Shown: positions 15,701-58,515 of the stretch, piece after piece
Position numbering within the stretch: position 1 is the first letter of the stretch
Layout: each line of letters opens with the position of its first letter
Virus record (IMG/VR): IMGVR_UViG_3300045988_104258
Strand: one strand, 5' to 3'
DNA length: 60,408 nt
Origin: a virus
Program-made: the position numbers and the translations under genes
Notes under the pieces: model-generated
What the model saw: the letters and a program-made list of their open reading frames with translations, nothing else
The model's database searches: none
What the model was told of the DNA's origin: nothing

Positions 15701-15703
15701 CGT

Positions 15704-16291: not shown

Positions 16292-16319
16292 TCTGCCTGC
16301 CTCCCTGTGCTGTTAAATG

Positions 16320-16742: not shown

Positions 16743-16783
16743 TTTTCTTTCTCCTTTACAAAGTCGATTCCATTTTGAATGGA

Positions 16784-17431: not shown

Positions 17432-17447
17432 TCGAGTTTCCTCCTTT

Positions 17448-17768: not shown

Positions 17769-18075
17769 TGTACAGTCCTCCCAGGGTAAGTGTCAGCCGC
17801 GGATAGTCGATCTGCACTTCTGTCACTTTCCATCTAGCACCCATAATCTCTGCATATTTAATGGAGTCAAAGTGCTTGTACAACGTCGGGTCGGCCAAAA
17901 TGCTCAAAGTATTTGCGATGGTTAGGTCGTCATTTACTTTGTCGGCAGTCTGGACACGTCGGGTATTCTTTAAAAGCTCGCCATAGCAATCATGCTCGGT
18001 CGCTTTTTCTTCAAAGATGCTCGGCTCCGTTTCAACTGTCTGCACCAGACCGATTTTTCCAAACCACTTGCTCAT
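17743..18075 (-). CDS. Head-tail adaptor / head closure protein (position-based)
   Basis: 110-aa ORF in the connector region. Confidence 0.35.
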   Translation of the reverse strand: MSKWFGKIGLVQTVETEPSIFEEKATEHDCYGELLKNTRRVQTADKVNDDLTIANTLSILADPTLYKHFDSIKYAEIMGARWKVTEVQIDYPRLTLTLGGLYNGGTPAET

Positions 18076-18129
18076 AGCATTTCACTCCATTTTGAAGTTA
18101 GATTATACTAACTTGATTTGCAAAAGAAA

Positions 18130-18405
18130 TCAGGCCGTTGCGGAAGCTGCCCATGCCTGGGTCTTCACAGTCTCGCCTGCGGTCACGGTCACAACGCCGG
18201 TGGTACCAAAGGCAACGGGCAGCAGGTAGTTTGCGCCCTCGACGATGATCAGGCGGCCCTTCTGGAACGCATCCTTAATCTCAGCCTCGGTCACGGTCTT
18301 CTTGAACGCTGCATCAGCGTACAGCTTGTGGTCTGCAGTCTTGCCGTAGGCCATGTAGTTTGCAACATGCAGGTCATTACCCTGCTCATAGAGCTTGTTC
18401 AGCAT
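18130..18405 (-). CDS. Hypothetical head-module protein
   Basis: 91-aa ORF directly after the capsid gene. Confidence 0.35.
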   Translation of the reverse strand: MLNKLYEQGNDLHVANYMAYGKTADHKLYADAAFKKTVTEAEIKDAFQKGRLIIVEGANYLLPVAFGTTGVVTVTAGETVKTQAWAASATA

Positions 18406-18422
18406 ATCGTTTTACCTCCTTA

Positions 18423-20228
18423 TCAGACCTTGGAAGAGTTGGCGGCATCCATCTCGATGGCCATTGCGCCATACGGAGTGGTCATTGCGCCGGAGCAGCG
18501 GGTCTCAATCAGGTAGATCAGCTGGTTGTAGTCGATGTTGAAGTCATCGAACATGTTGACCTCGCCGCCCTTATCGGCACCCACAGTATAGTCGGCCAGA
18601 TTGACCACGATGCCCAGCAGGTCGCCGCCCTTGGCACCCTTGCGGCCTTCCATGCGAGGAACAGTAACGATCTCCTTCACGCGCAGCTTCCGGGCCAGAG
18701 CAGCCTCGTCAGCGTACAGCGGATGGCCGATGCCGTCCTCCAGCAGCAGCATATCAGTCAGCACATCATCGGTGGTGTAGAAGGTCGGAGAGCCGGAGCC
18801 TTTGTACTCCTTACGGGCCTTGATGATGGACTTGATGGTTGCCTTGGCCTTGGCATCCTCGTTTGCATTGGTACCGGGCTGAACGACGACCTTGATGGTG
18901 TAGAAATCATCATCGTTGAAGATGGGACGGATGTTCAGCTCGTTGATCTTATCATCGCTGGCATCGTCGCGGCCGTCACCGATCAGGAAAGCCATACCAA
19001 GCTCCTCGTTCAGCTTGCCGCGCTGCTCCTTCTTGACAAAGCCGACCACATCCATGGTGGACATATCAACAATGTCGTCACGGTCGAAGCGCTGCTTCTT
19101 GTAAACGGTGGTCGGAGTGGTGGAACGCTTCAGCAGCTTGAACACCTGCTCCTTCTTGTAGTTGCCCTTGATGTAGCCCTTGGCGCGAGCCTCATCCTCG
19201 GTCAGGTCAGCAAACATGACCTTGACGCGGGCAAACGGCACATGATGGACGCTGTTCATAACCTTGTCAACCCAGGTCTGGTCACGATCCACAATGCGGG
19301 GTACCGTATCCAGATTGTGGTCATCCGGGAACAGGTAGTCCATGTTCTCGATGCTGTGGGCCAGCTCATCGCCGGTAATGCCTGCATCCAGGAAAGCATC
19401 GCGCAGAGTGCCGTGCTTGCTGGCAGTTGCGATAATGCCGTTGATGTCATCCAGACTGTGCTTCAGCACAGTGCCGCCGTTGTCGTTCTCAAAGCAGTGG
19501 TGCATAGTATTGTCCTCCTCGCCATCACCCTTGTTGTCGCTCTCACCGCCCTTGCCTTCATCCAGGGCAGAGCCGATAATAGCGTAAACCACGTTCTTCT
19601 GTTCCTCCGTCAGAGTATCAAATACCTCCTTGACGGTCTTCTCGTTGGCATCAGCCATTTTGCTTTCTCCTTTCTTATCCTTGTCGGTTTCGCTGGAATC
19701 ATCCGAATGCTCCAACGTTTCGTCCTCCAGCGGGTTATCGTCCGGGTCCAGCCCATGCTTCAGGCTCAAACCAGAATCGGTGTAAATATAGGCCTCGAAA
19801 CTGTCTGTTTCGGTGCCATCTGCAGTGTGCTTCACGACTTCATCGATCAGGGCACCGGGGTTGCATCCGGCAATTACCAAGCTCAGTTCCTTGATCATAC
19901 CGTGCATCACGGTTCGGCCTGTTTTCTGAATGCCGTTTGCGTAGATGGACATTGCGTCAATGTCACCGTTATCCACGCAGGCCTTGGCAGTCTGACCGCT
20001 GGATGTGTCGTTCAGCTTGACGTATGCGTACACGCCTTCCTTGCGGTTCTGCAGCAGTGCATGGCCCAGAACACTTTCGGGTGCGCTATGGTCATGGTTC
20101 CATACCACCGGAACCACCTTACCATCGCAGTCCTTGAATGCATTCGGCGCAATGGTCAGGCCATCAAAGCACTTCACATTGGCTTTGGTCGCCCAACCGG
20201 AAAAGTCATAATCGAAATTGATTGCCAT
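18423..20228 (-). CDS. Prohead protease - scaffold-like linker - HK97-fold major capsid protein fusion
   Basis: N-terminus VPVVWNHDHS...IDAMSIYANG is S78 protease-like, the middle is an acidic linker, the C-terminus is capsid-like; start MAINF at 20228 with SD GGAAGGAG. Confidence 0.65.
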   Translation of the reverse strand: MAINFDYDFSGWATKANVKCFDGLTIAPNAFKDCDGKVVPVVWNHDHSAPESVLGHALLQNRKEGVYAYVKLNDTSSGQTAKACVDNGDIDAMSIYANGIQKTGRTVMHGMIKELSLVIAGCNPGALIDEVVKHTADGTETDSFEAYIYTDSGLSLKHGLDPDDNPLEDETLEHSDDSSETDKDKKGESKMADANEKTVKEVFDTLTEEQKNVVYAIIGSALDEGKGGESDNKGDGEEDNTMHHCFENDNGGTVLKHSLDDINGIIATASKHGTLRDAFLDAGITGDELAHSIENMDYLFPDDHNLDTVPRIVDRDQTWVDKVMNSVHHVPFARVKVMFADLTEDEARAKGYIKGNYKKEQVFKLLKRSTTPTTVYKKQRFDRDDIVDMSTMDVVGFVKKEQRGKLNEELGMAFLIGDGRDDASDDKINELNIRPIFNDDDFYTIKVVVQPGTNANEDAKAKATIKSIIKARKEYKGSGSPTFYTTDDVLTDMLLLEDGIGHPLYADEAALARKLRVKEIVTVPRMEGRKGAKGGDLLGIVVNLADYTVGADKGGEVNMFDDFNIDYNQLIYLIETRCSGAMTTPYGAMAIEMDAANSSKV

Positions 20229-20301
20229 TTTGAATTTTTCACACTCCTTCCTGCTGATCTGCATAGTCGTAACCCTGCTCGTCAGCATAAGTTTCTTCGC
20301 C

Positions 20302-21501
20302 CTACATGGGCATCTTCTTGTCAGCCGAGGCAATATTACGGTTTGCAAGCTGGTCGGACTTCGGGTCCTTCGAGGGCTTCATGCCAATCACCTGCCGGAA
20401 CTCGTTCGGGGTCATGATCTCGTTGCGGGTGAACTTATCTGCCATCTCTGCAATCATGCTCACCGGTGCCAGACGGAACGGATCACGGAAGAACATGATG
20501 CTCTGACCCTGCGTCCGGGCAGTCTTTGTCAGGAACTTCCGCTTGAACTCATCTGCAATTGCCGATATGACTGGCTCAATGATGCGATTCATGTAGTTGT
20601 TCATCGTTTTCTCGTCCGCAGTACCATTCAGGATCTCCTGTGTCACACCCAATTGACTGTATACCATGTTCGTCAGGTATTCGATGGATTTCAGAATGTT
20701 GTTTTCGAGACTGCGATTCAACTGCACGATCCGCTCAGTGCCGTCCGTATAGGCAATACCGTACTTGGAGCCGGAAAGCTGCTGTTCGATGTCAGCCCTG
20801 CGCTGTTCAGCCTGTTCCCTTCGCGCCGGACTCTTGATGACATAGGGCAGCTGAATGATCATGTCCAGCTTTCCGCTGCCAGCCTGCTCATCCACCACAT
20901 CCAGCAAGGCCAGTTTTCGCACCAACTGCTGCATAGTAGAGTTCGGGGCATTCATGACTGCGTAAAACGGATTTTCAATCAGAGCCACCATCTTCTTCGG
21001 GAAAGTGATTTCCTCCTTCTGCCCGGTCAGCTCATTGAACAATCGCACACGCACATGATTCGGGTACCACTCCACAGGTACGCCAACGCGCATGGAGTAG
21101 ATTTCATAGCTGTTGCTGTAGCGCGGGTCAAAGTTTGTTTTCTCTGGCACAACTGCTGCAACGCCCTCTTCCAAAAAGGTCATCACGATATCCTGAATCA
21201 GCCCTCGACCGGTCTGGTCAGCATTGGCCTCAGTATTCAGGCAATAATTAAGGCCCGAATCAATAATCGAATCAAACCGATTATTTTCATCGAGCTTTAC
21301 GTGGTTGATCGTAATGGATGCTGCATCCAGCGCGATGCGGTTATAGATGGCATTGATGATGGTGCGCTCACTCCCACGGGAAAAGCGCATCCGATCAGGG
21401 CGATAACTGTAGCCACCCCCATAATACCTGCTTCCGGGAGGGTCCCGGTTGAGAAAGGCATTCCAGGCGTGTTTCAGCCTGGAGCCAATGTTCATCTCCA
21501 T
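20302..21501 (-). CDS. Portal protein
   Basis: 399 aa located between the TerL region and the protease/capsid gene. Confidence 0.55.
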   Translation of the reverse strand: MEMNIGSRLKHAWNAFLNRDPPGSRYYGGGYSYRPDRMRFSRGSERTIINAIYNRIALDAASITINHVKLDENNRFDSIIDSGLNYCLNTEANADQTGRGLIQDIVMTFLEEGVAAVVPEKTNFDPRYSNSYEIYSMRVGVPVEWYPNHVRVRLFNELTGQKEEITFPKKMVALIENPFYAVMNAPNSTMQQLVRKLALLDVVDEQAGSGKLDMIIQLPYVIKSPARREQAEQRRADIEQQLSGSKYGIAYTDGTERIVQLNRSLENNILKSIEYLTNMVYSQLGVTQEILNGTADEKTMNNYMNRIIEPVISAIADEFKRKFLTKTARTQGQSIMFFRDPFRLAPVSMIAEMADKFTRNEIMTPNEFRQVIGMKPSKDPKSDQLANRNIASADKKMPM

Positions 21502-21517: not shown

Positions 21518-22573
21518 TTAACTCAAATAATCGCTCATCTTGCGTTCCATGTAAGCGGAGCACTCCGAAACCGTCTTGTTGCCCAGCTTGGAAACGTAGC
21601 CGATTGTGTTTGCTCCAACTTCTTTTGCAATTCGCTCGGCATTGTAGCGCATATACAGCTTGTCCACGACCTTCGGATTGGTCTCTGTCACCGATTGCAG
21701 GCGGACAGAATCTGTATCAAACACGATCATCGGGCGCTTTGCATGATAGCTGGAATAATCCTTGTCGTTATAATCCAGCAACGCATTGTAGCCTTTCTTA
21801 CTCAGCTCCGCATAGAAACGGCTCTGTGCCGCCACTTCCTGTGCGTTATGGTTTGTCAGAGAAAGGTTTAGAGCTTTATAGATAGCCACTTTTTCAGAAG
21901 CCGTCAGTGTGGTGGGGTCTTTCTTCAACGCATTCTCAGCTTGCTTAAAAAGCACCTGCTGGGTGGGTCTGCGCATCTTCTCTTTGGAATCCGCTATGGA
22001 TGCTTCAAGATTCTGCTTGAACTCTTTCTCTTTCAGCAGTCTAGCCGTAATATCACTTGCGTTCTCATCAGAAGGCACCTTCAGCTTCTTGACTGTTTCC
22101 AGTTTCAGCTGATAGACCTTCATGCTGTTGGCTTTATCGCGTAAAGCGGTGGCCGTTACTAAGTCAGCTTCGCTGCCGGAAGCGTTCGCCTGCTTTTCTG
22201 CCTGTTTGGCATCGTAATTGGCTCGTGTCATCAGATTCTTTCCGAAGAGCCCCATGTACTTATCACTGTCAGCCTTCTTATAGGTGGCGTAGAACGCGAA
22301 ATTCTCGAAGTCCTTGGAAGTCTGAATCCGAGAGAAAGTTGTGCCCTTCTTCAGGTATCCGTCAACATACTGCCGACCCGTCACCTGTGTGCGAGCAGTA
22401 TTCACACAGTCTTTTACTCGCATCTCCATTGTGGATGCCATGCGCTCCATTCGGCTTGCGTTCTGACTTACACCATAACGCTTCCGTCCTGCCGGGGTAT
22501 ACGTGCCGTCAGCATACTGGTAACGCCTTACGCCCCACTTCTGGCCTTTGATGCCGTGGTGATACAATTCCAT
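21518..22573 (-). CDS. Head-module protein with an N-terminal GIKGQKWGVRRY motif
   Basis: 351 aa; N-terminus MELYHHGIKGQKWGVRRYQYADGTYTPAGRKRY is shared with 22584..23105 and 26021..26500. Confidence 0.5.
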   Translation of the reverse strand: MELYHHGIKGQKWGVRRYQYADGTYTPAGRKRYGVSQNASRMERMASTMEMRVKDCVNTARTQVTGRQYVDGYLKKGTTFSRIQTSKDFENFAFYATYKKADSDKYMGLFGKNLMTRANYDAKQAEKQANASGSEADLVTATALRDKANSMKVYQLKLETVKKLKVPSDENASDITARLLKEKEFKQNLEASIADSKEKMRRPTQQVLFKQAENALKKDPTTLTASEKVAIYKALNLSLTNHNAQEVAAQSRFYAELSKKGYNALLDYNDKDYSSYHAKRPMIVFDTDSVRLQSVTETNPKVVDKLYMRYNAERIAKEVGANTIGYVSKLGNKTVSECSAYMERKMSDYLS

Positions 22574-22583: not shown

Positions 22584-23105
22584 TCACCCCTCTCGCAACT
22601 TCTGAATTGCAAGAGCAATGCTTAACGCAGAACTGGTAATGGCGAGAACGCTTCCCGCAACCTCCAAAGTATCACTAACGGCTTCCCGGCCGGAATAGAC
22701 CTTCTTCGGATTGAACATGTCATCGTACTGTTTCTCCAGCATGGCCCGATTGATTCGTTCCCGCATCTCCTGGTCGGTCATCTTGCTTAAATCCATCTTT
22801 TCTGTCCTGCGAGACTGAATCTTCATGGACTTGTCGCTCAGTGTTTTCAGGTTACCTGCCATTTGGCTGCCAGCATCTGCGACAGATTTTGCCCGTTCAC
22901 GATCTTCACGAACCCAGTGATTCGGATCTTGCAAAGCATCCGCAGGCAGCTTATTATCTTTTTTCTTTTTGTCATTGGTCGTTACATCCCTGTCGTACCG
23001 TTTCTTGCCTGCATCCGTCAGGCTACCATTGGCATTCTGGTAACGCCGAACGCCCCATTTCATACCTTTGACGCCCCAGTGCCAAATCTGATTATTATAA
23101 TACAA
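22584..23105 (-). CDS. Small protein with an N-terminal GVKGMKWGVRRY motif
   Basis: 173 aa; IWHWGVKGMKWGVRRYQNANGSLTDAGKKRY; C-terminal hydrophobic segment. Confidence 0.5.
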   Translation of the reverse strand: MYYNNQIWHWGVKGMKWGVRRYQNANGSLTDAGKKRYDRDVTTNDKKKKDNKLPADALQDPNHWVREDRERAKSVADAGSQMAGNLKTLSDKSMKIQSRRTEKMDLSKMTDQEMRERINRAMLEKQYDDMFNPKKVYSGREAVSDTLEVAGSVLAITSSALSIALAIQKLREG

Positions 23106-23204: not shown

Positions 23205-24257
23205 ATGTCTGATTCTCAACTGCGTCCCGCAGATTTCAATTGCGAGATTGCGCCTTGTGAAACCCATCCTGATTTCGATGACTCAACCCGTTTTAAAAAG
23301 GTCGAGTTTCCAGAGCAGGCAGGGCTTGCTGCCAATTCGTTATTGCAACTGATTCCTGCGCAAGCTGCGGCTGACGCTGTTTCCAGCACGTATGTTCTCC
23401 GTTTTCCAAAAGGCATCCATGGCACATTGTTGAACTTAAATCAGGGCGGTCAGTCCACAACTATGGTAGATGCCACCGGACATTTTGCAGGCACTGCTTC
23501 TCTGTATAAGGTCGATCCTGCAGCAGTTGCCGCTTTTCAGATGTTCAGTGTTGCTTCTTTTGCCACCGGACAGTATTTCCTCGCAGACATCAGTTCCAAG
23601 TTAACAGAAGTCAATCGAAAGCTGGATGACCTTCTGGTATTTCTTCAGGCTTCCAAACGCACGGAATTGCTGTCTGAACTTACATTTGTTAAGTATGCAC
23701 TTGCAAACTTCTCGACCATCATGCTCAGTGAGCCGCAGCGCATGGCTACCATCGGCAACCTGCAACGTGCAAAAATCAAGGCTGTGGCTGACATGGAGTT
23801 CTACACGGAGCAGTTGGAAGATTCTGTTGGTGCAAAAACCAACGAAAATCAGGCCAGAACCGTATTGCAAAACAAACAGGGCATTGACCTTGCTTCCCAG
23901 CTGTATGCCATCAGTACCATTATGGAAGCTTACTATGCGCAAAATTGGAACAAGTCTTACCTTGCGAATATCAAAGCCGATGCGAAACCTTTGTTTGCTC
24001 TCAGTCAGAACCGCATGATTGGTGCGCTGAAAACCTTCTCTGATAAAATAAACAAGGAAATCGAAAGCAAAAAGAAAGGTCTGCTCAAAGGCGATGTGTC
24101 TGCAAGCGAGCACAAAATTCTGGAACTATCTGATGTATTGAATGCGCAGCCAGAGTCTCCGCTTCTTGTCTTGGTCAAGGATGCACTGGACAAGCCTTCT
24201 GCTCCTACGGAACTGTACCTTCGTCCGAACGGCGAAGTCTACCAAAAGGTCGTTTGA
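23205..24257 (+). CDS. Hypothetical 350-aa protein; the only plus-strand gene (moron)
   Basis: ATG at 23205 with SD GGAGGAGG. Largely helical sequence with no family recognised by eye. Its stop codon lies one nucleotide from the convergent TerL stop codon. Confidence 0.6.
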   Translation: MSDSQLRPADFNCEIAPCETHPDFDDSTRFKKVEFPEQAGLAANSLLQLIPAQAAADAVSSTYVLRFPKGIHGTLLNLNQGGQSTTMVDATGHFAGTASLYKVDPAAVAAFQMFSVASFATGQYFLADISSKLTEVNRKLDDLLVFLQASKRTELLSELTFVKYALANFSTIMLSEPQRMATIGNLQRAKIKAVADMEFYTEQLEDSVGAKTNENQARTVLQNKQGIDLASQLYAISTIMEAYYAQNWNKSYLANIKADAKPLFALSQNRMIGALKTFSDKINKEIESKKKGLLKGDVSASEHKILELSDVLNAQPESPLLVLVKDALDKPSAPTELYLRPNGEVYQKVV

Positions 24258-26020: not shown

Positions 26021-26500
26021 TTATCTTTGAACCAGATGTTTATCAAGATAACGTTTATACTCTGCATCGTATTCCTTTTTCGGATTACGAAGAAGGAGAA
26101 AGCTATCCTTAGTGTCAAGATTCAAGTCAAGAGTGGCATTAAACCGCTCTGCCTCTTTTTTAACTTTTTCCGCTGCTCTTTTTCCTTCTGATACAACCTG
26201 TTTGTCAATTTGGGAAAACCCACGTTTTCCAATTCGGCTCATCAGAGCATCCACTTTGGTACGTGCCTGCTTTTCATAGTATTTATTGTTATAAGAGTCC
26301 AGCGCAGAAATTCCCGTTGAATTAACTGTTTTAGACTGTTCGGCCAACTTTTGAGTATTTTTAATATTGTTATAGCTTTTTCGATATTTGCGCACTCCCT
26401 CTGGTGTCAGACTGCCATCAGCATTCCGGTAGCGCCGAACGCCCCATTTCATACCTTTGACGCCCCAGTGCCAAATTTCACAACTATTCATAATCATCAC
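26021..26500 (-). CDS. Small protein with an N-terminal GVKGMKWGVRRY motif
   Basis: 159 aa; EIWHWGVKGMKWGVRRYRNADGSLTPEGVRKY; 44 nt identical to 23044..23087. Confidence 0.5.
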   Translation of the reverse strand: MMIMNSCEIWHWGVKGMKWGVRRYRNADGSLTPEGVRKYRKSYNNIKNTQKLAEQSKTVNSTGISALDSYNNKYYEKQARTKVDALMSRIGKRGFSQIDKQVVSEGKRAAEKVKKEAERFNATLDLNLDTKDSFLLLRNPKKEYDAEYKRYLDKHLVQR

Positions 26501-26893: not shown

Positions 26894-29071
26894 TCAGTTC
26901 TTATTGCTTATTACCCACTTGTCAAAATCATGGAACGCCGAATCCATTAAAACAGTATCCATGCGTGACAATGCATTAAAAGAAATCCCCTTTTCCTGCA
27001 TCTTTGTTTCATCAATCTTATAGAGATGGGCTGAATTATAAAGGATTCCACAAGATTTCAAGTAATCCAACACCTGCTTTTTTACAGAGCTGTTGCTAAC
27101 TACAACACGATCTATCCTATCAGCAGTTTTAGCCAAAGTATCCTTTCTGTGTGTTCTGAATTCAACAAGGATACAATGCATTGCATGAATAAACTTTACT
27201 ATATCAAAATTCGAGCTGTCCTCAAAGTCGTATTTATAAGGAATTAAAGAATAATAATTTGTCAAATTTTCTGCATCGACTTTTAAGTCATCAGCCTTTG
27301 CAACATCAATTATTACTCCATCGCCTGCAAAGCCTTCATGAGCAACCAACAAGCAAGTTTCAGGTTTATAAGATTCTATGCTGATGTTCTGTGTTTCCCA
27401 AATCAGCTTTCTACAAATCACTGATGAATTATAAACCCTACAGTCAACGCCCTTCTTTCCAATATGGACATCAACACTAGGAGCATCAATGGAAACACTA
27501 ATCAACTGATCAAAAGCTATCAGCTCTCCGGTCATGCTGATTTCAGCAATATAGTCTTCTCTCTTTATAGCCTTCTTCTTCCCGGGAATCATCCCAAAAA
27601 CAGCCAAACACTTGCTGTCCTCCGTTTCGGATGCCGGAATCTCAGAGCATTCCAAATACGGACGTTCATACGCCGTTGCTTTAGCCTTAAAGGAATCATA
27701 CACATACGAAATGTGTTTAGGCTGAATTGTTTTCTCAGAGATTCTCATATAGCAATCAAAGAAAATCTGAGACGGGAAATAAGACTGACTCTGTAAAACA
27801 TCGAAATACAAATCAGCGGACGCTTCATGTTCTTTGTTTAAGATAATTTTCGTCAGGGTATAATCTCTAAATGCAGGACCCGTAAAATCAATCTTTTTCG
27901 ATAGTCCATTATTCTCGACACTATTACGTATAAATGGATGCTGCGGCAGAAACGCTTCCAGCACAGCCTGATATTCATTCACCAACTGTGGAGGCAAAAA
28001 GTCAAGCTCGTAGTTGCTATACTTACAATCCTGAAAAAGAATAAAGTATATAATCCTTACAAGTTGCTCTTCCGGTGAATAAACTTTTTCCCAATCAGAA
28101 AATTCAGGATGCGATGCCGCACATCTTTCCTTAAATGCAGGAATCACTTTTTCCGCCTGTTCACGATTCAACAGATCGTCCATTATCTTCATGATAATTG
28201 CTACACAGTCCTTCTGATTTGCAAGCTCGCTAATCAGTTTCTGACGGTTAGGAGATTCCTTTATATGTGCAGATATTGCCTCCAACACCGGTGCATAGCC
28301 CAAGAAAGATGCTCTTTCTTCAGGTGTGATATTGGTATTGACTACATCATAATACTTCTCTGCGCATGTAATGTCAGGCTTCGTTGGAGTATTCTTTCCA
28401 GCAACACTTCTCACAATAAAAGACTTTGCTGCAGTTTCATCGAAAAAACCGATTTCATAGTGAGCAACGGGAATTTTGTTTTCTGCGCAGAATGAAGCGA
28501 TATATTGGGCTGTTTCTGTTCTCGCTAGCAGGAACACTGTAGGCATCGTATGGTTTGATAAGCTTTCACTAATGTCGGCAATAAAGCTGTTCAACATTTT
28601 CCGCCCCGAAATGATCTCGGCTTCATCAAAAGCATCAATAACCAATAAAACATTACCCATGTTCATATCAGCTATAAACTCGGAATACTTTGGCGCTCCG
28701 ACAGCATTAAGAATTGAACCAGCAAAGCTGTTCGTACCAACTTTTACTTTTGCCAGATTCCAGTAGAGGGCATTAAACCGATGTGCAATATATTTAGCTA
28801 AAGAGCTCTTGCCCGCCGCTCCTGGTGCCGACAGCAAAACAAATTTCGGCTTCAGAGTAGACAGTTTTTTATCGGTTTTTACGTCACTGAAAGATGGCGG
28901 AATATAGAACGGCTCATTATCTATATAGCTAATGTAGTCCGCTACCGAATCGTTCAGCAAGTATCTCTTGCATTCGCTATATGAGCCAAGAATTCCTTCC
29001 AGAACCATTTGACTTCCTCCTATGATAGAGTCGATGTATTTTATTACATTATAATCTCTTATCGGTTTCAT
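26894..29071 (-). CDS. NACHT/STAND-like P-loop NTPase (candidate prophage-encoded defence protein)
   Basis: Walker A LLSAPGAAGKSS, Walker B LLVIDAFDEAE, long helical C-terminal region. Start taken at the ATG at 29071 with SD GGGGGAG (the ORF-track start at 29215 overlaps the HNH gene). AT-rich relative to its neighbours. Confidence 0.6.
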   Translation of the reverse strand: MKPIRDYNVIKYIDSIIGGSQMVLEGILGSYSECKRYLLNDSVADYISYIDNEPFYIPPSFSDVKTDKKLSTLKPKFVLLSAPGAAGKSSLAKYIAHRFNALYWNLAKVKVGTNSFAGSILNAVGAPKYSEFIADMNMGNVLLVIDAFDEAEIISGRKMLNSFIADISESLSNHTMPTVFLLARTETAQYIASFCAENKIPVAHYEIGFFDETAAKSFIVRSVAGKNTPTKPDITCAEKYYDVVNTNITPEERASFLGYAPVLEAISAHIKESPNRQKLISELANQKDCVAIIMKIMDDLLNREQAEKVIPAFKERCAASHPEFSDWEKVYSPEEQLVRIIYFILFQDCKYSNYELDFLPPQLVNEYQAVLEAFLPQHPFIRNSVENNGLSKKIDFTGPAFRDYTLTKIILNKEHEASADLYFDVLQSQSYFPSQIFFDCYMRISEKTIQPKHISYVYDSFKAKATAYERPYLECSEIPASETEDSKCLAVFGMIPGKKKAIKREDYIAEISMTGELIAFDQLISVSIDAPSVDVHIGKKGVDCRVYNSSVICRKLIWETQNISIESYKPETCLLVAHEGFAGDGVIIDVAKADDLKVDAENLTNYYSLIPYKYDFEDSSNFDIVKFIHAMHCILVEFRTHRKDTLAKTADRIDRVVVSNSSVKKQVLDYLKSCGILYNSAHLYKIDETKMQEKGISFNALSRMDTVLMDSAFHDFDKWVISNKN

Positions 29072-29132
29072 GTCAAATTCTCCCCCAAAGGTATCTGACT
29101 CAAAGTATACATCTTTTATAATTCTTAAATTG

Positions 29133-29591
29133 TCAAAAGCAAGTTTTTCTCCATGGGCAGGTGTCGCCCGGTCTTCGTTCTGTGAATACTGGCTCCAGAA
29201 TGCTGTCATCCCCATAATGGATTGCCTTATGTGTTCGATCGGATACGCAAATCACATTATCAGGGTCGAGTAAACACTCTCGGTGCTCCAGTACGTCTTC
29301 TTTTGTAATAGGGTTTATATGGTGAATGATGATACGTGGTCGGATAAGTTTTCCGTCTCGGACAACCCAGTCCGTAATCTCATGGTCAGGAACGCCAAGA
29401 TCGCACCCCATGTCTCGAACAATAATTTTGTCACGAAACATCCGCCACTCTCTGGACTGGTAAAAGTCTTGATTCAGGTATCGGTCAAAGCCGAATGTGT
29501 CATGCCCAACAGCACCATGCAGTTGTAAATAATGGAACCGGTCTTCAAAGGTCGAATACTGGCAAAGCTCAGAATATGTTCTCTGATTCAT
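29133..29591 (-). CDS. HNH endonuclease (packaging-associated)
   Basis: IIHHINPITKED...SDRTHKAIH is an HNH motif; adjacent to the small terminase-like gene. Confidence 0.7.
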   Translation of the reverse strand: MNQRTYSELCQYSTFEDRFHYLQLHGAVGHDTFGFDRYLNQDFYQSREWRMFRDKIIVRDMGCDLGVPDHEITDWVVRDGKLIRPRIIIHHINPITKEDVLEHRECLLDPDNVICVSDRTHKAIHYGDDSILEPVFTERRPGDTCPWRKTCF

Positions 29592-30249: not shown

Positions 30250-30519
30250 TTACACTGTTTGCTCTCCAGGAGCGTCATCTTTGATATCGAGTTTGAGTTT
30301 TTTGTAGATATTGAGCGGGTCATTGCCCACGATTTGGTCGATAGCCTGCTCAATTTCATACGCATTTTCTGCGTCCGTGAGCTGGTCAGAGGTGTAAGCC
30401 ATCCGCATCAGCAGCCCAGACGAGTTATAACCCTTGTCGGTGTCGAACCGATACCAGTCCTCAAACTGTTCATAAGGACTGTACGGGTTGTCAACAGTGG
30501 TTAAAAAGCATCGAATCAT
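30250..30519 (-). CDS. Hypothetical conserved phage protein
   Basis: 89 aa; FLTTVDNPYSPYEQFEDWYRFD motif seen in many Firmicute phages. Confidence 0.45.
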   Translation of the reverse strand: MIRCFLTTVDNPYSPYEQFEDWYRFDTDKGYNSSGLLMRMAYTSDQLTDAENAYEIEQAIDQIVGNDPLNIYKKLKLDIKDDAPGEQTV

Positions 30520-30534: not shown

Positions 30535-33300
30535 TTACTTGTTAAGATTGTCATAAATCGTTGACTCAGGAACGCCACAAGCCTTTGCAATCTCTGCATA
30601 GCTATAGCCGTTTGCCAACATCGCTTGTGCTTTGCCTAACTTAGCAGAAGACAACGTTGTACTTGCTTTTGGCATTGCTCGTTTGATGATTTCATCCGAC
30701 TTTGACGAGTTCAGAATCTTCATCAGCTTGGAATCAGAGATTGCACCAGCTTGAACTGCTTCCCATTCACGATCTGTGAACGTAATCTTTGTCTTGCTGC
30801 CGCTTGCACCAACAGAATCGCGTGCGCGCTGCATCTCAACAGCGGCAATCTTCTTGATTTCTTTCTTGTCCTTCTTATAGTCCAAACCTTGAGCCTGTAC
30901 TTTAGCCTTAATATTCTCGTTTGCAATAATGGTAGCACGCCTTTCTTTCGGCTTGTTACCAATAACCGCATTGAGCTTAGCGTTAATAGACTCAACCTCG
31001 GCTCTATATTTTTCGGCAGCATCAGGGCTTTTCTGGATGCCCTTCATATTTACCGCCTCTTTCCGCGCCTGATTAGCCAAAGCCTTCAGTTCATTTGAAA
31101 AATCGGCATAGTAATTTTCTTGAATGGTGCCGGAGGATAGGTCTCGTGCGTTAGGGTACATGGAAATAAGACTTACTTCCGTCATAGCTTGTACTCTCTT
31201 GCCCGTTTTTGGGTCAATAAAAGTACGCCCAGACTCCTTATATTTTTTTTCGCCCGTCTCTTTATCGATTCGAGCACTTCCTTTGCGCTCAGGCACTCGA
31301 ACGGTCTGTTTTCTTCTGGATAAGAGCGTGGATGCACCGCCATATTTTTCAGTGCCGTCCTCTTGCACTCTGATTTGCCATTTTTGCTTCAGCTCCTGGA
31401 TACCATTTTCACGTTCAGAACGTTTATAGTCCAGCTTATGCTTTTCCGCATCAATAACGACCATGGAATGCTTGACGGCACGAGCAATATCGCCTTCAGG
31501 TGCGCCGCGAAGAGTCATGTCAGTAATAAGATTGGAAATAATCCCCATCTCTTTCTGCTTTTCCTCTTTCTTCATGAGGCGCACGCCATTGGGATTTCCT
31601 TCAGGCACAGCATATGCAATCTTGGGGTCGAAGTCTTTCAAATCCTTCAGAGCGGGGGTGGATTTAATATCAACTTTGCTCGACTTTGGAATCGCTACAA
31701 CCGTATCGCCATCAAAATCAGCACCAGACAAACGTTCTGCAACCTTTGCGTTGATGCCAATTGCATCCTGCACATTGCCGAGATTTCTACGCCCGGACAA
31801 ATTCTTGTTATTGACCGTTACAATAGGAATCTCAAAGGTTCCTGCATGAGGAAAACGAACCAATGCAAGCTGAGTGCCATCAGGATATGTAGGACAATAG
31901 CATTCTCTCTCTCCGATTTTGGACAGTGGTAAAATAACCTTTGTCGCCTGACCCGGGAAAGAAGATGCTTTCAGGGTCATCGAGTTGCCCTCGCAAGTAT
32001 CTGCGAAATCAAGCAACAGCTTTTTCCGAATCGTCGGATTGTCATACTGCATAATTTCGTCATATTCTGCCTTGCGGTCAGCAATAGTAAGATCTAATTG
32101 CTGTTTCAGAAGTTTGACCGGCTGTTTGGACAGAAACTGCGAAGAAAGGTTCTTTGCCATGGTGTCCCAATCGCCTTCTTCTTTCAGCTTATTGATGGGC
32201 GACAGATGTTCTTTTCCGTCCTCACCAATATAGGTGCTCTGACCATTTGCCTTGATAGATGCGCCGAAAGGATTATCGGGGTCATCTTTGATAGGCTTTA
32301 AGACCTTCATTTTCGGAGTGCCAGATTTCTTGTTGGTGTTAAACACCACATCATAACCTTTAGGAATATCGTCAGAATATACAGCCATGCCTTTCAGATA
32401 ATGACTGTCATCCACCATGATACGAACCTGCGCATAATGTGATTTTCCGAGGTTCAGGTCAGCAACACCTCTCCGAATTTCGATAACGCCATCCTTGTCC
32501 AGACCGCCTTCATCACCATAACGAATATAAACACGGTCAGAACTCATGCTACTGGGGCGCTGAAGCTTCTTGAACGTTTCACCGCCATCTTCAGAATGAT
32601 ACTCACCAAGAGACTGGATTTCATTCTGATGCTGATATGCATATTTCTGGTCATATTCCGGCTTTGCCAGAACAGTGATGTTGGTTTGCTGGTTAATATT
32701 TGTTGGCTGACGAATGCCAACGCCATAACGCTGATATCCGTGCTCTGCCTCTAAAACAAATATAGCATCGTCCAAATCACCTTCTGAAACGCCCAGAACC
32801 AGATTTGTACCTTCGGAAACATCGATCATGCCCTTCTTATCGACTTCCTTGCGCAGGGTCTCGGCAATTTCTTTGGTTCTGGTATATTTATCAGGTTTGT
32901 CGTTCTTCAGCATCGAACGAACCGTGGATTCAGATAAACCCATCTCACGACCGATTTCTGTGGGGCCGAGCCCATCCTGAGATAAGGCACGTGCACGGTC
33001 ATATTTGAGCTGCTGGCGTTCGTGAATGGCTCTGCGTTGTGCCATACGGAACTCGGTAGCACCCATCTTATATTCTTCGGGGAGAGAATCGTTAATGGTC
33101 TGGAGAATATCCTTCTCCTTCATGCCGCTCTTCTTCAGTTCCTCAACACGTGACAGAAAATCGCCTGAACGCTGATACGGATTCTCACCGGACCCCCACG
33201 GATATCTGCCCGAGTGGCGTTTGGTACCATAATGCTCCAGGATACTGTCTTCCGGCGCGATACCGAAATATCCTCGAATATCTCTTTCTACCGGATTCAT
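30535..33300 (-). CDS. YonO-like single-polypeptide two-barrel RNA polymerase with N- and C-terminal HTH domains
   Basis: LVRFPHAGTFEIPIV...IGINAKVAERLSGADFDGDTVVAIP parallels beta-prime NRAPTLHRLGIQAF...NADFDGD. SHYLKGMAVY may be a beta-like GNKG element. HTH sequences: GLGPTEIGREMGLSESTVRSML and YSYAEIAKACGVPESTIYDNL. Confidence 0.6.
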   Translation of the reverse strand: MNPVERDIRGYFGIAPEDSILEHYGTKRHSGRYPWGSGENPYQRSGDFLSRVEELKKSGMKEKDILQTINDSLPEEYKMGATEFRMAQRRAIHERQQLKYDRARALSQDGLGPTEIGREMGLSESTVRSMLKNDKPDKYTRTKEIAETLRKEVDKKGMIDVSEGTNLVLGVSEGDLDDAIFVLEAEHGYQRYGVGIRQPTNINQQTNITVLAKPEYDQKYAYQHQNEIQSLGEYHSEDGGETFKKLQRPSSMSSDRVYIRYGDEGGLDKDGVIEIRRGVADLNLGKSHYAQVRIMVDDSHYLKGMAVYSDDIPKGYDVVFNTNKKSGTPKMKVLKPIKDDPDNPFGASIKANGQSTYIGEDGKEHLSPINKLKEEGDWDTMAKNLSSQFLSKQPVKLLKQQLDLTIADRKAEYDEIMQYDNPTIRKKLLLDFADTCEGNSMTLKASSFPGQATKVILPLSKIGERECYCPTYPDGTQLALVRFPHAGTFEIPIVTVNNKNLSGRRNLGNVQDAIGINAKVAERLSGADFDGDTVVAIPKSSKVDIKSTPALKDLKDFDPKIAYAVPEGNPNGVRLMKKEEKQKEMGIISNLITDMTLRGAPEGDIARAVKHSMVVIDAEKHKLDYKRSERENGIQELKQKWQIRVQEDGTEKYGGASTLLSRRKQTVRVPERKGSARIDKETGEKKYKESGRTFIDPKTGKRVQAMTEVSLISMYPNARDLSSGTIQENYYADFSNELKALANQARKEAVNMKGIQKSPDAAEKYRAEVESINAKLNAVIGNKPKERRATIIANENIKAKVQAQGLDYKKDKKEIKKIAAVEMQRARDSVGASGSKTKITFTDREWEAVQAGAISDSKLMKILNSSKSDEIIKRAMPKASTTLSSAKLGKAQAMLANGYSYAEIAKACGVPESTIYDNLNK

Positions 33301-33857
33301 GCTGTCGCTCCTAACTTCAGTTCAGTAATGATTTTGTTGAACTCAATGATTTTGCTAATGATAGGATCGATGTCCTCGCAAGTCGGATTCACGATCCAAA
33401 TATCATCGTTCTGGTAGATGCGGTTTTCGATTTGAATATCGCGAGGCTTGACGCCATACTCCAAGCAGAAAAGTGCATCATAGATGAAGAGCTGTTCCAT
33501 GTGTGCCGGTACCAGACCGGTCTTCAAATCGTGGATGCGCAGGAAGTTGTTTGCAAAATGAATTGTATCGGCTGTGCCATAGCAGTTCTCTGAATAATAA
33601 AGAACTACTTCCGGGGTCATGCAAAAACCGATTGCATCGTTGACATAGGAGTTGAGCGTCTTCTTACTCCGAGGAAGCTTCTGTCCTAACGCAATGCTTT
33701 CTGCAGCATATGCATGAAGCCGTGTTCCTCTCTCCTTCGCCTGATAGTTTACAAAGGACTCTGCAATCCGGGCAGCATCATAATTGATCCAATGATACTT
33801 ACTCGCCCCCAGAAAAGCGTGCTGGCCTTGCAGTCGTGAATGATCGTTCCAGTTCAT
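33297..33857 (-). CDS. PD-(D/E)XK nuclease (YqaJ/Cas4-like)
   Basis: FLGASKYHW, GTADTIHF, LRIHDLKTG motifs; SD GGAGGAG. Confidence 0.55.
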   Translation of the reverse strand: MNWNDHSRLQGQHAFLGASKYHWINYDAARIAESFVNYQAKERGTRLHAYAAESIALGQKLPRSKKTLNSYVNDAIGFCMTPEVVLYYSENCYGTADTIHFANNFLRIHDLKTGLVPAHMEQLFIYDALFCLEYGVKPRDIQIENRIYQNDDIWIVNPTCEDIDPIISKIIEFNKIITELKLGATA

Positions 33858-34119
33858 CCAGTATCTCCTCCTTATTCTCAGGATAAATAAAAGAGGCATA
33901 GCTCATCTCGTTCATCTTGGCTACGTAGTAGTCTTGATTCGGACGATGCGATACCTTGCCTGTTTTCTTTCCTTCGAGTGCTGCCCATCTGTCTCGATAT
34001 AAAACCAAGAGATCCGGAATCCCTTGAATTTCATTCGGGTCAAGATGAACGACCATGCAGCCGGGAAAGCGTTTCTTCAGGTCTTTCACCAATCCTGTTT
34101 TGAATTTGTTCTCTAGCAT
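33799..34119 (-). CDS. VRR-NUC domain nuclease
   Basis: GIPDLLVLYRDRWAALEGKK motif. Confidence 0.55.
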   Translation of the reverse strand: MLENKFKTGLVKDLKKRFPGCMVVHLDPNEIQGIPDLLVLYRDRWAALEGKKTGKVSHRPNQDYYVAKMNEMSYASFIYPENKEEILDELERSFTTARPARFSGGE

Positions 34120-34139
34120 ACAAACCTCCAAAAATAAAA

Positions 34140-34199
34140 GAGGAACAGCATGTTTTTACGCACACTGTTCCTCCCATAAAAGAGCAAGAAATTTACGCG
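34140..34199 (-). promoter_or_regulatory. Motif copy K (CGCGTAAATTTCTTGCTCTTTTATGG, 34174..34199) followed directly by a 9-bp hairpin and a U-run (34129..34173)
   Basis: GAGGAACAG (34140-34148) pairs with CTGTTCCTC (34165-34173); the minus-strand U-run runs into the SD of the gene starting at 34119. Confidence 0.45.
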
Positions 34200-39619: not shown

Positions 39620-39663
39620 ATCCATTTTCCTCCTAAAATAACAGTTAAATAACTTCCGTTCTT

Positions 39664-39689
39664 CCATAATATAGTCTGTTATTTTCGCG
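39664..39689 (-). promoter_or_regulatory. 26-nt promoter-like motif, copy I
   Basis: Minus strand CGCGAAAATAACAGACTATATTATGG, 44 nt upstream of the start at 39619. Confidence 0.45.
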
Positions 39690-42698: not shown

Positions 42699-42722
42699 GA
42701 GCCGCAGATTTCTCCACGGCTC
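42699..42722 (-). terminator. Conserved hairpin, copy T1
   Basis: Plus strand GAGCCGCAGATTTCTCCACGGCTC; minus-strand U-run TTTTATAT follows; lies 16 nt after the stop of the 42738 gene. Confidence 0.55.
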
Positions 42723-52414: not shown

Positions 52415-52440
52415 GGTAATTCTCCTTTATAAAAATAAAA

Positions 52441-52466: not shown

Positions 52467-52485
52467 CTTGCGGCTGTCCAACAGA

Positions 52486-52797: not shown

Positions 52798-52840
52798 AGT
52801 GATTCTCCTTTAATTAAAATATAAATGTTGGAGTATACCT

Positions 52841-52866
52841 CCATAACAGTCGGTGAAATTTTCGCG
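52841..52866 (-). promoter_or_regulatory. 26-nt promoter-like motif, copy A
   Basis: Minus strand CGCGAAAATTTCACCGACTGTTATGG, 43 nt upstream of the start at 52797. Confidence 0.45.
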
Positions 52867-53920: not shown

Positions 53921-53951
53921 AATTTTTACCTCCAATTCTTTTAGGATTTCT

Positions 53952-53977
53952 CCATAATAGCGTTGGAATTTTTCGCG
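53952..53977 (-). promoter_or_regulatory. 26-nt promoter-like motif, copy B
   Basis: Minus strand CGCGAAAAATTCCAACGCTATTATGG, 31 nt upstream of the start at 53920. Confidence 0.45.
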
Positions 53978-55247: not shown

Positions 55248-55288
55248 AATTTCATGCCTCCAAAATGTAATTTTGAGATTTCATATCT

Positions 55289-55314
55289 CCATAAGATGGC
55301 ATGAATTTTTCGCG
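55289..55314 (-). promoter_or_regulatory. 26-nt promoter-like motif, copy C
   Basis: Minus strand CGCGAAAAATTCATGCCATCTTATGG, 41 nt upstream of the ATG at 55247. Confidence 0.45.
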
Positions 55315-56760: not shown

Positions 56761-56799
56761 TTTGATTATCTCCTTTTAAGTCAATATTTGGAGTTTTCT

Positions 56800-56825
56800 C
56801 CATTAAACAGAATGTTTTTCTCGCG
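56800..56825 (-). promoter_or_regulatory. 26-nt promoter-like motif, degenerate copy J
   Basis: Minus strand CGCGAGAAAAACATTCTGTTTAATGG, 39 nt upstream of the start at 56760; overlaps the 3' end of the upstream ORF. Confidence 0.35.
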
Positions 56826-57387: not shown

Positions 57388-57423
57388 AATAAATTCTCCT
57401 TTCAATTTTCAGAAGACATCCTT

Positions 57424-57449
57424 CCATAATAGAATACGAAAAGTTCGCG
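57424..57449 (-). promoter_or_regulatory. 26-nt promoter-like motif, copy D
   Basis: Minus strand CGCGAACTTTTCGTATTCTATTATGG, 36 nt upstream of the start at 57387. Confidence 0.45.
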
Positions 57450-57471: not shown

Positions 57472-57541
57472 GAAAGAGAACGGGAATCGAACCCGTAACC
57501 TCTGCATTCCAGCAGCGCTCTACCAATTGAGCTATCTCCTT
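57472..57541 (-). tRNA. tRNA-like gene with a defective or short anticodon arm (70 nt; possible pseudo-tRNA)
   Basis: Acceptor AAGGAGA/TCTCTTT (one G-U), D-arm TAGCTCAATTGGTAGAGC, T-arm ACGGGTTCGATTCCCGT. Only 20 nt lie between the D and T stems where 23 are expected. Best pairing is CTGC/GCAG with a 6-nt loop TGGAAT. Confidence 0.45.
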
Positions 57542-57567
57542 CCATAAAAGAAGATGAAAATTTCGCG
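57542..57567 (-). promoter_or_regulatory. 26-nt promoter-like motif, copy E (abuts the tRNA-like 5' end)
   Basis: Minus strand CGCGAAATTTTCATCTTCTTTTATGG. Confidence 0.45.
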
Positions 57568-57768: not shown

Positions 57769-57797
57769 AGTATCATCCTCCAATATGCCCTCTACTT

Positions 57798-57823
57798 CCA
57801 TAAAGGAAAATGAAAATTTCACG
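57798..57823 (-). promoter_or_regulatory. 26-nt promoter-like motif, copy F
   Basis: Minus strand CGTGAAATTTTCATTTTCCTTTATGG, 29 nt upstream of the start at 57768. Confidence 0.45.
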
Positions 57824-58061: not shown

Positions 58062-58073
58062 AACTAATCACCT

Positions 58074-58099
58074 CCATAAAACACCCTGAATTTCTCGCG
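58074..58099 (-). promoter_or_regulatory. 26-nt promoter-like motif, copy G
   Basis: Minus strand CGCGAGAAATTCAGGGTGTTTTATGG, 12 nt upstream of the start at 58061. Confidence 0.45.
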
Positions 58100-58450: not shown

Positions 58451-58489
58451 ATTGTGTTCTCCTTTGTATTTAAACAGTGAATATTCGTT

Positions 58490-58515
58490 CCATAAAGGAA
58501 CCTGCAATTTTCGCG
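58490..58515 (-). promoter_or_regulatory. 26-nt promoter-like motif, copy H
   Basis: Minus strand CGCGAAAATTGCAGGTTCCTTTATGG, 39 nt upstream of the start at 58450. Confidence 0.45.

Follow-up and report, generated by a model that had tools for sequence, protein, structure and literature searches.

A 921-residue phage protein of the two-barrel RNA polymerase class with terminal helix-turn-helix domains, and a 27-nt promoter-like motif that it probably reads

We examined a 60,408-nt stretch of viral DNA (IMG/VR record IMGVR_UViG_3300045988_104258; "the window" below means this whole stretch) and, within it, a 921-aa open reading frame (ORF) on the minus strand at 30535-33300. We consider it probable that this ORF encodes a single-chain, two-barrel RNA polymerase of the phrog_4291 family and that the polymerase reads a 27-nt motif, repeated in the same genome, as a sigma-free promoter. 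By analogy with YonO, crAss gp66 and P23-45 gp64, the enzyme would be DNA-dependent and not, as its database name has it, RNA-dependent. The polymerase and its architecture have already been described and annotated and are not new; what we add is a promoter-like motif found across phyla, a conserved leader hairpin, the virion label of the phage 1706 ortholog, and the N-terminal tag.

A first-pass annotation made from the letters alone had singled out this ORF as a polymerase candidate, and the ORF is present on the minus strand with an ATG start and all of the peptides quoted for it. Residue numbers below count the initiator Met as 1; the 35-sequence alignment and the AlphaFold2 model, which omit it, are numbered one lower. 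Conservation was judged in two sets, the 35-sequence alignment of proteins from Faecalibacterium and actinobacterial phages (44-95% identity) and a 6-sequence alignment that includes Lactococcus phages. The parts of the protein discussed here are as follows.

30535..33300, minus strand: candidate phrog_4291-family single-chain two-barrel RNA polymerase, 921 aa (ATG start, phrog_4291, Foldseek)
31681..31893, minus strand: predicted beta-prime-like barrel, residues 470-540, with R482-x-P484 and metal-binding D528-F-D530-G-D532 (invariant columns, translation, model)
32326..32517, minus strand: predicted beta-like barrel block, residues 262-325, with DG..IR.G..DL, YAQVRI, HYLKGMAVY and FNTNK (invariant residues, predicted strands)
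32896..33018, minus strand: N-terminal helix-turn-helix (HTH), sigma region 4/LuxR-like, residues 95-135 (Pfam Sigma70_r4, GerE)
30538..30789, minus strand: C-terminal helical DNA-binding region, residues 838-921, ending in an HTH_23/sigma-r4-like HTH at 892-918 (Pfam)
33187..33243, minus strand: invariant N-terminal tag, residues 20-38 (ILEHYGTKRHSGRYPWGSG), predicted disordered (alignment and predicted local distance difference test, pLDDT)

Ruprich-Robert and Thuriaux defined eight residues that are invariant in all two-barrel polymerases (PMC2919709), and every one of them has an invariant candidate in this family: D528/D530/D532, R482/P484, R293/K303, and D270 or D281. The peptide GADFDGD (bases 31705-31719) holds the three aspartates, the counterparts of the reference metal loop (Rpb1 D479/481/483; Qde1 D1007/1009/1011), and LVRFPHAGTFEIP holds R482-x-P484 (peptide LVRFPHAG, R482-F-P484), the counterpart of Rpb1 R446/P448 and Qde1 R962/P964 (PMC2919709). 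All five residues are unchanged in all 35 and all 6 aligned sequences. The region forms a strand-helix-loop-strand in the model, with DFDGD between helix and strand, and we regard these five assignments as secure. In E. coli beta-prime, 35 residues separate R425 from D460. Here R482 and D528 are 46 residues apart, a spacing that fits QDE-1 (45 from R962 to D1007; PMC2919709) better than beta-prime, so that the earlier claim of a beta-prime signature matched "in order and spacing" holds for the order and only approximately for the spacing.

The second barrel would lie in the block at residues 262-325, in which D270, R276, D281, R293, H300, Y301 and K303 are invariant. R293 (in YAQVRI) and K303 (in SHYLKGMAVY) lie on neighboring predicted strands and would correspond to the reference basic pair (Rpb2 K979/K987; Qde1 R738/K743), an equivalence drawn from invariance and predicted strands, while the reference acidic residue (Rpb2 D837; Qde1 D709) has two candidates for its one position, D270 and D281, both invariant (PMC2919709). 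The proposal that SHYLKGMAVY belongs to the beta-like barrel is therefore plausible, as this peptide sits within the invariant beta-hairpin block that carries R293 and K303.

Searches of the PDB by single sequence and by profile returned HTH matches only and zero polymerases. Homology to polymerases is visible solely in the fold or in sub-threshold profile matches. We built an AlphaFold2 model on the 35-sequence alignment (pLDDT 71.9; 75-88 in the beta-rich cores) and compared it with solved structures by Foldseek, the check proposed along with the first-pass annotation. The best matches in the PDB were QDE-1 (E=5.2e-7, 3.6e-6 and 1.4e-5, probability 1.00) and Arabidopsis RDR2 (E=4.5e-3 and 1.2e-2), followed by ~45 chains that are solely largest subunits of cellular and poxvirus RNA polymerases. 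A library of viral structures gave a phage "RdRP" (E=6.9e-5) and A7XX94 of Thermus phage P23-45 (616 aa; E=2.1e-3, probability 0.99). As ranked by Foldseek, the significant matches were limited to two-barrel polymerases. Consistent with this, 19 of the 35 family members match the Pfam RdRP family PF05183 below threshold (best E=7.6e-4), and HHpred of an ortholog had given PF05183 with 95.7% probability (bioRxiv 10.1101/842583). Together with a full-length phrog_4291 match, these results uphold the earlier reading of a single-chain polymerase of the QDE-1/YonO kind, and they support, as far as a predicted model can, placing the 921-aa protein in the fold class with two double-psi beta-barrels.

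The match to phrog_4291, a family named "RNA-dependent RNA polymerase", spans residues 17-920 and profile positions 8-906 of 909 (E=0, 1168 bits), and the family keeps its layout over the full length: N-terminal tag, N-terminal HTH, core, C-terminal HTH. By tblastn against 50,697 phage records, 250 records matched, 249 of them over at least 80% of the protein and in fact with query coverage of 97% or more. The nearest relative is gp55 of Faecalibacterium phage FP_oengus (YP_009797581 / AUV56548; 74% identity), annotated "putative RNA polymerase" or "RNA-dependent RNA polymerase"; others, at 38-47% identity, come from Arthrobacter, Gordonia, Streptomyces, Microbacterium, Curtobacterium and Rhodococcus phages and from Lactococcus 1706-like phages, and most of these are annotated "helix-turn-helix DNA-binding domain protein". 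Searching with the core alone (residues 141-840) gave 1,444 clusters at 50% identity, 743 of them at E<=1e-30, and among the best 150 listed nearly all are 870-1030 aa long, with the core placed alike and the same extensions at both ends. Faecalibacterium contigs of 0.2-1 Mb hold many of the close relatives, which are thus prophages.

The family has been noticed before. A 2010 review listed the "phage 1706" family as one of five YonO-like families (PMC2919709), and a preprint by Koert et al. (2021; bioRxiv 10.1101/842583) described an RdRP-like core with N- and C-terminal HTHs and termed the gene a signature gene of a phage supercluster. The supplement of the P23-45 paper (PMC10770324) includes a family, "Cyano_RUMTOR_01356", that has DFDGD and might correspond to the phrog_4291 family. 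Genomics papers on Gordonia, Arthrobacter and Rhodococcus phages mention neither the polymerase nor the repeats, and PADLOC returned nothing for the polymerase beyond a generic HTH match.

Taken literally, the database names would make the protein either a true RNA-dependent RNA polymerase, as in RefSeq and PHROG, or an HTH protein with a dead core, as in the SEA-PHAGES records. Both names stand in public records, the nearest solved folds are RdRPs of the RNA interference (RNAi) type, and QDE-1 has both activities (PMC9508822). Nevertheless, we judge this reading very improbable: the phage has a double-stranded DNA genome and no known RNA template, the name "RdRP" was transferred from Pfam PF05183, and the invariance of the catalytic residues across phyla at ~40% identity argues against a dead enzyme. 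Both family names are probably misleading.

An HTH had been proposed near each end of the protein, and both are found. The C-terminal one (892-918) exceeds the Pfam cut-offs for HTH_23 (E=3.5e-10, 39.8 bits, cut-off 24.6) and Sigma70_r4_2 (E=6.8e-9, 35.7 bits, cut-off 25.7). Its recognition helix carries the motif GVPxST, of which S913-T914 is invariant and G-V-P nearly so in the 35-sequence alignment; with the Lactococcus phages added, only G..ST is invariant across all seven phages aligned. The N-terminal HTH (~109-133) falls slightly under the cut-off in this protein (Sigma70_r4 E=9.5e-5, 22.3 bits, cut-off 24.1; GerE E=6.5e-4) and is matched by Sigma70_r4 in 25 of the 35 family members, at best with E=2e-8. 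Its helix MGLSES(S/T)VRS is conserved in six of seven aligned phages, Lactococcus phage P162 being the divergent one. The HTH recognition helices rank among the most conserved parts of the protein. We considered the C-terminal HTH as a small-terminase-like binder of the cohesive end site (cos; Terminase_5 E=5.7e-6, phrog_309) and set this aside as probably generic HTH similarity. Ahead of the N-terminal HTH, the tag (residues 21-38 read LEHYGTKRHSGRYPWGSG) is nearly invariant across Faecalibacterium, Lactococcus, Microbacterium, Gordonia and Rhodococcus phages, with pLDDT <50.

The candidate promoter is a 27-nt motif that reads, in coding orientation, CGCGAAAWTTYC-N8-TTATGGA. It occurs ten times with three or fewer mismatches, against 0.06 expected, and there is one weaker copy. 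All copies are intergenic and on the coding (minus) strand, at 34173, at 39663 and at nine sites from 52.8 to 58.5 kb, and they precede early and middle genes and the polymerase operon; the structural half (window 1-30 kb) was scanned and has zero copies. A ribosome-binding site and an ATG follow 10 of the 11 copies by 11-53 nt, and conservation extends to the TAT-G junction, ~20-40 nt ahead of start codons. The copies found by the motif scan are:

34173..34199, minus strand: variant motif CGCGTAAATTTC-N8-TTATGGG, upstream of the nuclease-polymerase operon
39663..39689, minus strand: copy in the middle region, 2 mismatches
52840..52866, minus strand: copy, exact consensus
53951..53977, minus strand: copy
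55288..55314, minus strand: copy
56799..56825, minus strand: weaker copy
57423..57449, minus strand: copy
57541..57567, minus strand: copy, exact consensus, abutting a tRNA-like gene at 57471-57542
57797..57823, minus strand: copy
58073..58099, minus strand: copy
58489..58515, minus strand: copy

Because the exact copy at 57541..57567 abuts the tRNA-like gene, transcription appears to start within TTATGGA, which suggests a layout like that of T7 promoters. ARAGORN assigns no standard anticodon to this tRNA-like gene (57471-57542, minus strand). The early region shows no excess of sigma-70-like sites (27 against 24.5 expected); hairpin terminators are enriched. Separately, we noted that eight terminator-like hairpins on the minus strand after early genes share a near-identical stem and loop, GAGCCGTGGAGAAATCTGCGGCTC followed by a T-run, a degree of sequence conservation that is unusual among intrinsic terminators. 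They lie at:

42699-42722, minus strand: shared-sequence hairpin
52438-52469, minus strand: shared-sequence hairpin
53670-53699, minus strand: shared-sequence hairpin
54964-54989, minus strand: shared-sequence hairpin
56292-56325, minus strand: shared-sequence hairpin
57117-57148, minus strand: shared-sequence hairpin
57845-57860, minus strand: shared-sequence hairpin
58116-58131, minus strand: shared-sequence hairpin

Phages with related polymerases have related or analogous motifs. Where the early region of FP_oengus begins, this very motif is present 11 times. The polymerase of Gordonia phage Avazak is 42% identical, and that phage carries 11-13 early-region copies of CGCRnAAATTACA-CGTCC-TATAATGAGACCCC and zero copies in bases 1-20,000; judged by its letters, the upstream half is recognizably the same element as here. 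Lactococcus phage 1706 has 11 copies of an analogous TTTTACA-N5-CTATAGTAGAAAG, with zero in bases 1-24,000. In the same phage, the 450-nt gap ahead of orf75 (2634-3083 of stretch L007) has four copies of ATCACGAAAAAACTTCGGG(AAAACTTCGGG).

The motif ahead of the polymerase's own operon is a variant, and directly after it comes a hairpin:

34138..34175, minus strand: leader hairpin and T-run right after the 34173 motif, a 15-pair stem then TTATTTTT; possible attenuator

FP_oengus has a TTATGGG-ending variant at the same place ahead of its nuclease-polymerase operon, and Avazak and ReqiPoco6 have analogous motif variants there. Within the sequences examined, the order of variant motif and then hairpin with T-run is seen at 34138-34199 in the window, ~11095-11165 in FP_oengus (stretch L001), ~3050-3095 in Avazak (stretch L004) and ~3040-3090 in ReqiPoco6 (stretch L005). 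Kept from Firmicutes to Actinobacteria phages, this leader layout may be an attenuator or an antitermination target.

These observations lead us to propose how the system might work. In place of a sigma factor, the fused HTH domains would bind the promoter's upstream CGCGAAAATTTC element, and the two-barrel core would start transcription at the G after TTAT, at the TAT-G junction. In this way the polymerase could transcribe early and middle phage genes independently of the host polymerase, its own operon being gated by the variant promoter and then the leader hairpin or attenuator, and the motif-free late genes would be served by another system. YonO is a precedent for DNA-dependent activity (PMC5467207), as are P23-45 gp64 and gp96, each with its own promoter motif (PMC10770324). 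The assignment of the motifs to the HTHs, as promoters of this polymerase, is an inference from correlation.

Several points weigh against this proposal. TM-scores to QDE-1 are only 0.25-0.28, and our claim therefore covers the fold class, the local active-site cores and the ranking of matches, not a global superposition. The beta-like roles of R293, K303 and D270/D281 are putative, being derived from conservation and predicted strands. What ties the motif to the polymerase is a correlation, due in part to shared phylogeny; the spacing between motif halves also varies, from 8 nt here to 5 nt in Avazak and 1706. Late genes have no motif copy at all, which requires a second transcription system. 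Our literature search gave no biochemical or transcriptomic work on any phrog_4291 member. Finally, the upstream half of the motif has a near-palindrome (GAAAATTTC) and could be an operator for a dimeric regulator.

The near-palindrome favors a different account, in which something else reads the motifs, be it the host polymerase together with a phage regulator or an HTH repressor or activator acting as a dimer, and the two-barrel enzyme is tied to the nucleases and replication, for example in priming or in making RNA for recombination or replication. This account seems to us quite improbable, given that a primase-like region is already present in the DNA polymerase gene, that conservation through the TAT-G junction is typical of phage polymerase promoters, and that every characterized phage two-barrel enzyme is a transcriptase (PMC5467207, PMC10770324).

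Where the gene lies bears on when the polymerase would act. Bases 1-64 are identical to 60345-60408, and the window is thus a circularly closed phage genome of ~60.3 kb, coded almost wholly on the minus strand. In order of transcription, it starts with the integrase (59087-60112), followed by short early genes (59-52 kb), DNA polymerase/primase, helicase and other replication genes. Next come a VRR-NUC endonuclease, a Cas4-like exonuclease, the polymerase and phrog_4303, and then a 270-nt gap with hairpins, including one with a T-run at ~30130, after the polymerase operon. Beyond the gap are phrog_4259, an HNH endonuclease, a 773-aa NTPase-like moron, a virion protein and a DUF7211 protein, followed by the large terminase, two further DUF7211 proteins, portal, a protease-capsid protein and tail genes. 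The operon neighbors of the polymerase are:

33297..34131, minus strand: upstream operon genes, VRR-NUC-like endonuclease 33799-34131 and Cas4-like exonuclease 33297-33899 (phrog_93 and phrog_3953)
30250..30519, minus strand: 89-aa partner gene directly downstream of the polymerase, phrog_4303 (E=4.5e-31)

The block of endonuclease, exonuclease, polymerase and small ORF is kept in Camille, Avazak, ReqiPoco6 and FP_oengus, and wherever their ends are mapped no further block lies between it and the right cohesive end. Lactococcus phages 1706 and P162 also have the polymerase and small ORF last, with lysis and other genes separating the exonuclease from the polymerase. A small ORF of similar size and position lies 3' of the polymerase in all six relatives (Camille, P162, Avazak, ReqiPoco6, 1706 and FP_oengus), where it is the final gene before the genome end whenever ends are mapped; the phrog_4303 product could be an accessory factor. 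The earlier placement of the polymerase "at the head of the late half" is accordingly correct on the circular map only: in relatives with mapped ends, no other large gene separates it from cos at the right end.

This position invites a model based on YonO, in which the polymerase is never packaged and is instead a middle gene, expressed by the host, that transcribes the structural and lysis operons across the closed cos junction. YonO does transcribe the SPbeta late operon from one start site (PMC5467207), the gene here lies directly upstream of the late genes on the circular map, a temperate life cycle favors host-driven expression, and the variant motif and leader hairpin could time a long late transcript. 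Against this, the strong motif copies are all early or middle, with zero in the 30-kb structural half, a hairpin with T-run (~30130) follows the polymerase operon, and there is no convincing host-type promoter ahead of the operon, the best candidate overlapping a terminator. We therefore find a dedicated late-gene role unlikely.

A refinement of the reading we prefer, a sigma-free polymerase of early and middle genes, is that the enzyme is a virion polymerase, as N4 vRNAP, crAss gp66 and P23-45 gp96 are. It would be made late and packaged, the tag being a candidate address, and after leaving the capsid along with the DNA it would read the early 27-nt promoters. The phage 1706 record EU081845 labels the ortholog orf75 "structural protein", whereas names given there by homology carry "putative". 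The same unqualified label is on orf6, 7, 11, 12, 13, 17, 20, 21, 62, 71 and 75, which together with portal, capsid and two tail proteins makes 15; the ReqiPoco6 ortholog repeats it. The 2008 paper on phage 1706 is said to have reported 15 structural proteins, by gel electrophoresis (SDS-PAGE) and liquid chromatography with tandem mass spectrometry (LC-MS/MS). Phage-specific motifs precede the first early genes, and the polymerase operon has the same type of motif; a polymerase needed both for the earliest genes and for its own operon faces a bootstrapping problem. The gene also follows the endolysin, a late gene, in 1706 and P162, and every relative has it next to the packaging genes on the circular map.

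The N-terminal tag bears on the same question. The first-pass annotation had noted an MKWG motif in three head-module proteins and a weak likeness to it at the N-terminus of the polymerase. The motif is real: it is Pfam DUF7211 (PF23847), 25 residues with HxGxKGMKWG, and usually sits at the extreme N-terminus of proteins encoded around terminase and portal in the phage supercluster. DUF7211 and its motif string go unmentioned in the literature searched. DUF7211 ORFs in the window and, by their motif, in relatives are:

26021..26500, minus strand: DUF7211-tagged protein, 159 aa, upstream of the large terminase (PF23847 E=1.4e-8)
22584..23105, minus strand: DUF7211-tagged protein, 173 aa, between large terminase and portal (PF23847 E=1.6e-8)
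21518..22573, minus strand: DUF7211-tagged protein, 351 aa, adjoining the portal, motif HHGIKGQKWGVRRY (PF23847 E=2.2e-5, below cut-off)
Avazak (stretch L011) 5915-7474, 9262-9645, 9658-10500 and 10522-10998: ORFs with the DUF7211 motif, three between terminase and portal and one upstream of terminase
1706 (stretch L006) 2501-3889: orf7, with the DUF7211 motif internal
FP_oengus (stretch L001) 23545-24192: ORF with the DUF7211 motif

The likeness of the polymerase tag to these proteins is faint and yet non-random. The N-terminus of the window polymerase has no match to Pfam DUF7211 at E<=10, and that of Avazak matches its first half only, far below the cut-off (E=0.03, 14.2 bits, cut-off 27). 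On the other hand, when a hidden Markov model of the polymerase tag was run against 1,373 ORFs, 6 of the 12 best non-self matches were DUF7211 proteins, and in Avazak the first halves of the tags are almost identical (DxFLAHHGV and EDYLAHYGI). From its letters and placement, the DUF7211 motif may be a capsid-targeting or processing tag; DUF7211-carrying orf7 of 1706, like orf75, is labelled "structural", and the polymerase tag resembles those of the proteins encoded between terminase and portal.

Other evidence tempers the case for packaging. The phage carries an integrase and is temperate, and many relatives are chromosomal copies, so that induction must express the polymerase without a virion supply and a virion-independent route must exist. 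The 1706 label is also on small proteins of the replication region (orf62 and orf71), which makes carry-over in the proteomics possible, and the tag lies below the DUF7211 threshold, with the window's own DUF7211 proteins absent among its cross-hits. On balance, we treat packaging of the polymerase as a serious possibility, though less likely than not. The fullest version of the proposal would join a self-sufficient, promoter-specific polymerase with a DUF7211-related capsid tag, ejection that launches early transcription, and an attenuator-gated operon; the DUF7211-type tag would then be a general capsid-targeting signal of the phage supercluster, and the upstream promoter half would span Firmicutes and Actinobacteria phages. 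That all of this holds together is, to us, rather doubtful.

Several other features of the genome were noted. The tyrosine integrase (59087-60112, minus strand) shares its strand with all other genes, whereas that of FP_oengus is divergent, and no repressor gene was identified in the window. The 773-aa P-loop NTPase-like ORF (26894-29215, minus strand) lies in a low-GC stretch (0.41) and is matched by neither PHROG nor PADLOC. Within its 5' end, at 29076-29048, is a perfect sigma-70 consensus, TTGACA-17-TATAAT; a strong terminator (26886-26859) is directly 3' of the ORF, and FP_oengus has no counterpart annotated at the same position; the ORF looks like a moron, possibly expressed from the prophage. 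The 641-aa ORF at 18423-20348 (minus strand) has a full-length match to phrog_3270, "head maturation protease", and a match to a major head protein family, and thereby looks like a protease-capsid fusion, as annotated for orf10 of 1706. A diversity-generating retroelement is likely present (2062-3288, minus strand; 3429-3519; 4158-4251; ORF 4146-5324, minus strand). In it, a reverse transcriptase (phrog_1423) adjoins a template-like repeat with a ~82% identical copy at the 3' end of a nearby tail-region ORF, most mismatches being adenines in the template copy.

Only a handful of single-chain two-barrel polymerases, which are minimal relatives of the universal cellular RNA polymerase, have been studied (YonO, crAss gp66, P23-45 gp64/gp96 and QDE-1). 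Carriers of this large family include abundant human-gut Faecalibacterium phages and prophages, dairy Lactococcus phages and hundreds of easily grown SEA-PHAGES isolates. If the HTHs do read the motif, this would show promoter recognition by a minimal two-barrel enzyme without sigma or TFIIB-like factors and might offer a compact orthogonal transcription system; the candidate promoters listed above make testing straightforward.

Among known systems, N4 vRNAP has the right-hand architecture of T7-like enzymes instead of two barrels. It has in common with gp66 of crAss-like phi14:2 and gp96/gp64 of P23-45 (PMC10770324) that it is phage-encoded and sigma-independent and has its own promoter motif upstream of early or pre-early genes, as proposed here. 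P23-45 encodes two characterized two-barrel polymerases (PMC10770324), and its A7XX94 was matched structurally (E=2.1e-3). In contrast, crAss gp66 has ~2,180 aa, P23-45 gp96 is fused to the tape measure protein, and their sequence families differ from phrog_4291; the P23-45 paper (PMC10770324) has zero occurrences of "helix-turn-helix" and reports no fused HTH domains. Packaging, a feature of the gp66- and gp96-type virion enzymes, would by this analogy be only a candidate trait of the phrog_4291 family. QDE-1 and plant RDR2 (PDB 7y7t, 5fsw, 7eu1, 7rqs) are the best structural matches (E=5e-7 to 1e-2), and QDE-1 also has nearly the same spacing from R-x-P to DxDGD (45, against 46 here). They differ in sequence (11-13% identity) and in global structure (TM-scores 0.25-0.28), and they are eukaryotic RNAi enzymes, QDE-1 being dimeric, without HTH domains or phage context.

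YonO of Bacillus phage SPbeta, itself a proven DNA-dependent transcriptase of phage genes, is likewise a single-chain two-barrel enzyme of ~100 kDa from a temperate Firmicutes siphovirus, with a DxDGD loop and few other conserved residues (PMC5467207). It serves one late operon from a promoter that is unknown (PMC5467207), whereas there are ~11 candidate promoter copies here, early and middle. YonO belongs to a different PHROG and sequence family, and no sequence match to it turned up here, a direct comparison not having been made. To our knowledge, YonO has not been reported to carry HTHs at its ends. Closest of all are FP_oengus gp55 and the phage 1706 family (Lactococcus 1706 orf75 and the Streptomyces BI, Gordonia DJ, Arthrobacter and Rhodococcus phage orthologs), which belong to the same family and share the full length, the tag, both HTHs and the catalytic motifs, so that the protein differs from them in sequence alone. 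The actinobacterial and Faecalibacterium phages also share the neighboring endonuclease, exonuclease and small downstream ORF, and this genome differs from FP_oengus in the strand of its integrase and in having the 773-aa moron between the polymerase block and the packaging genes.

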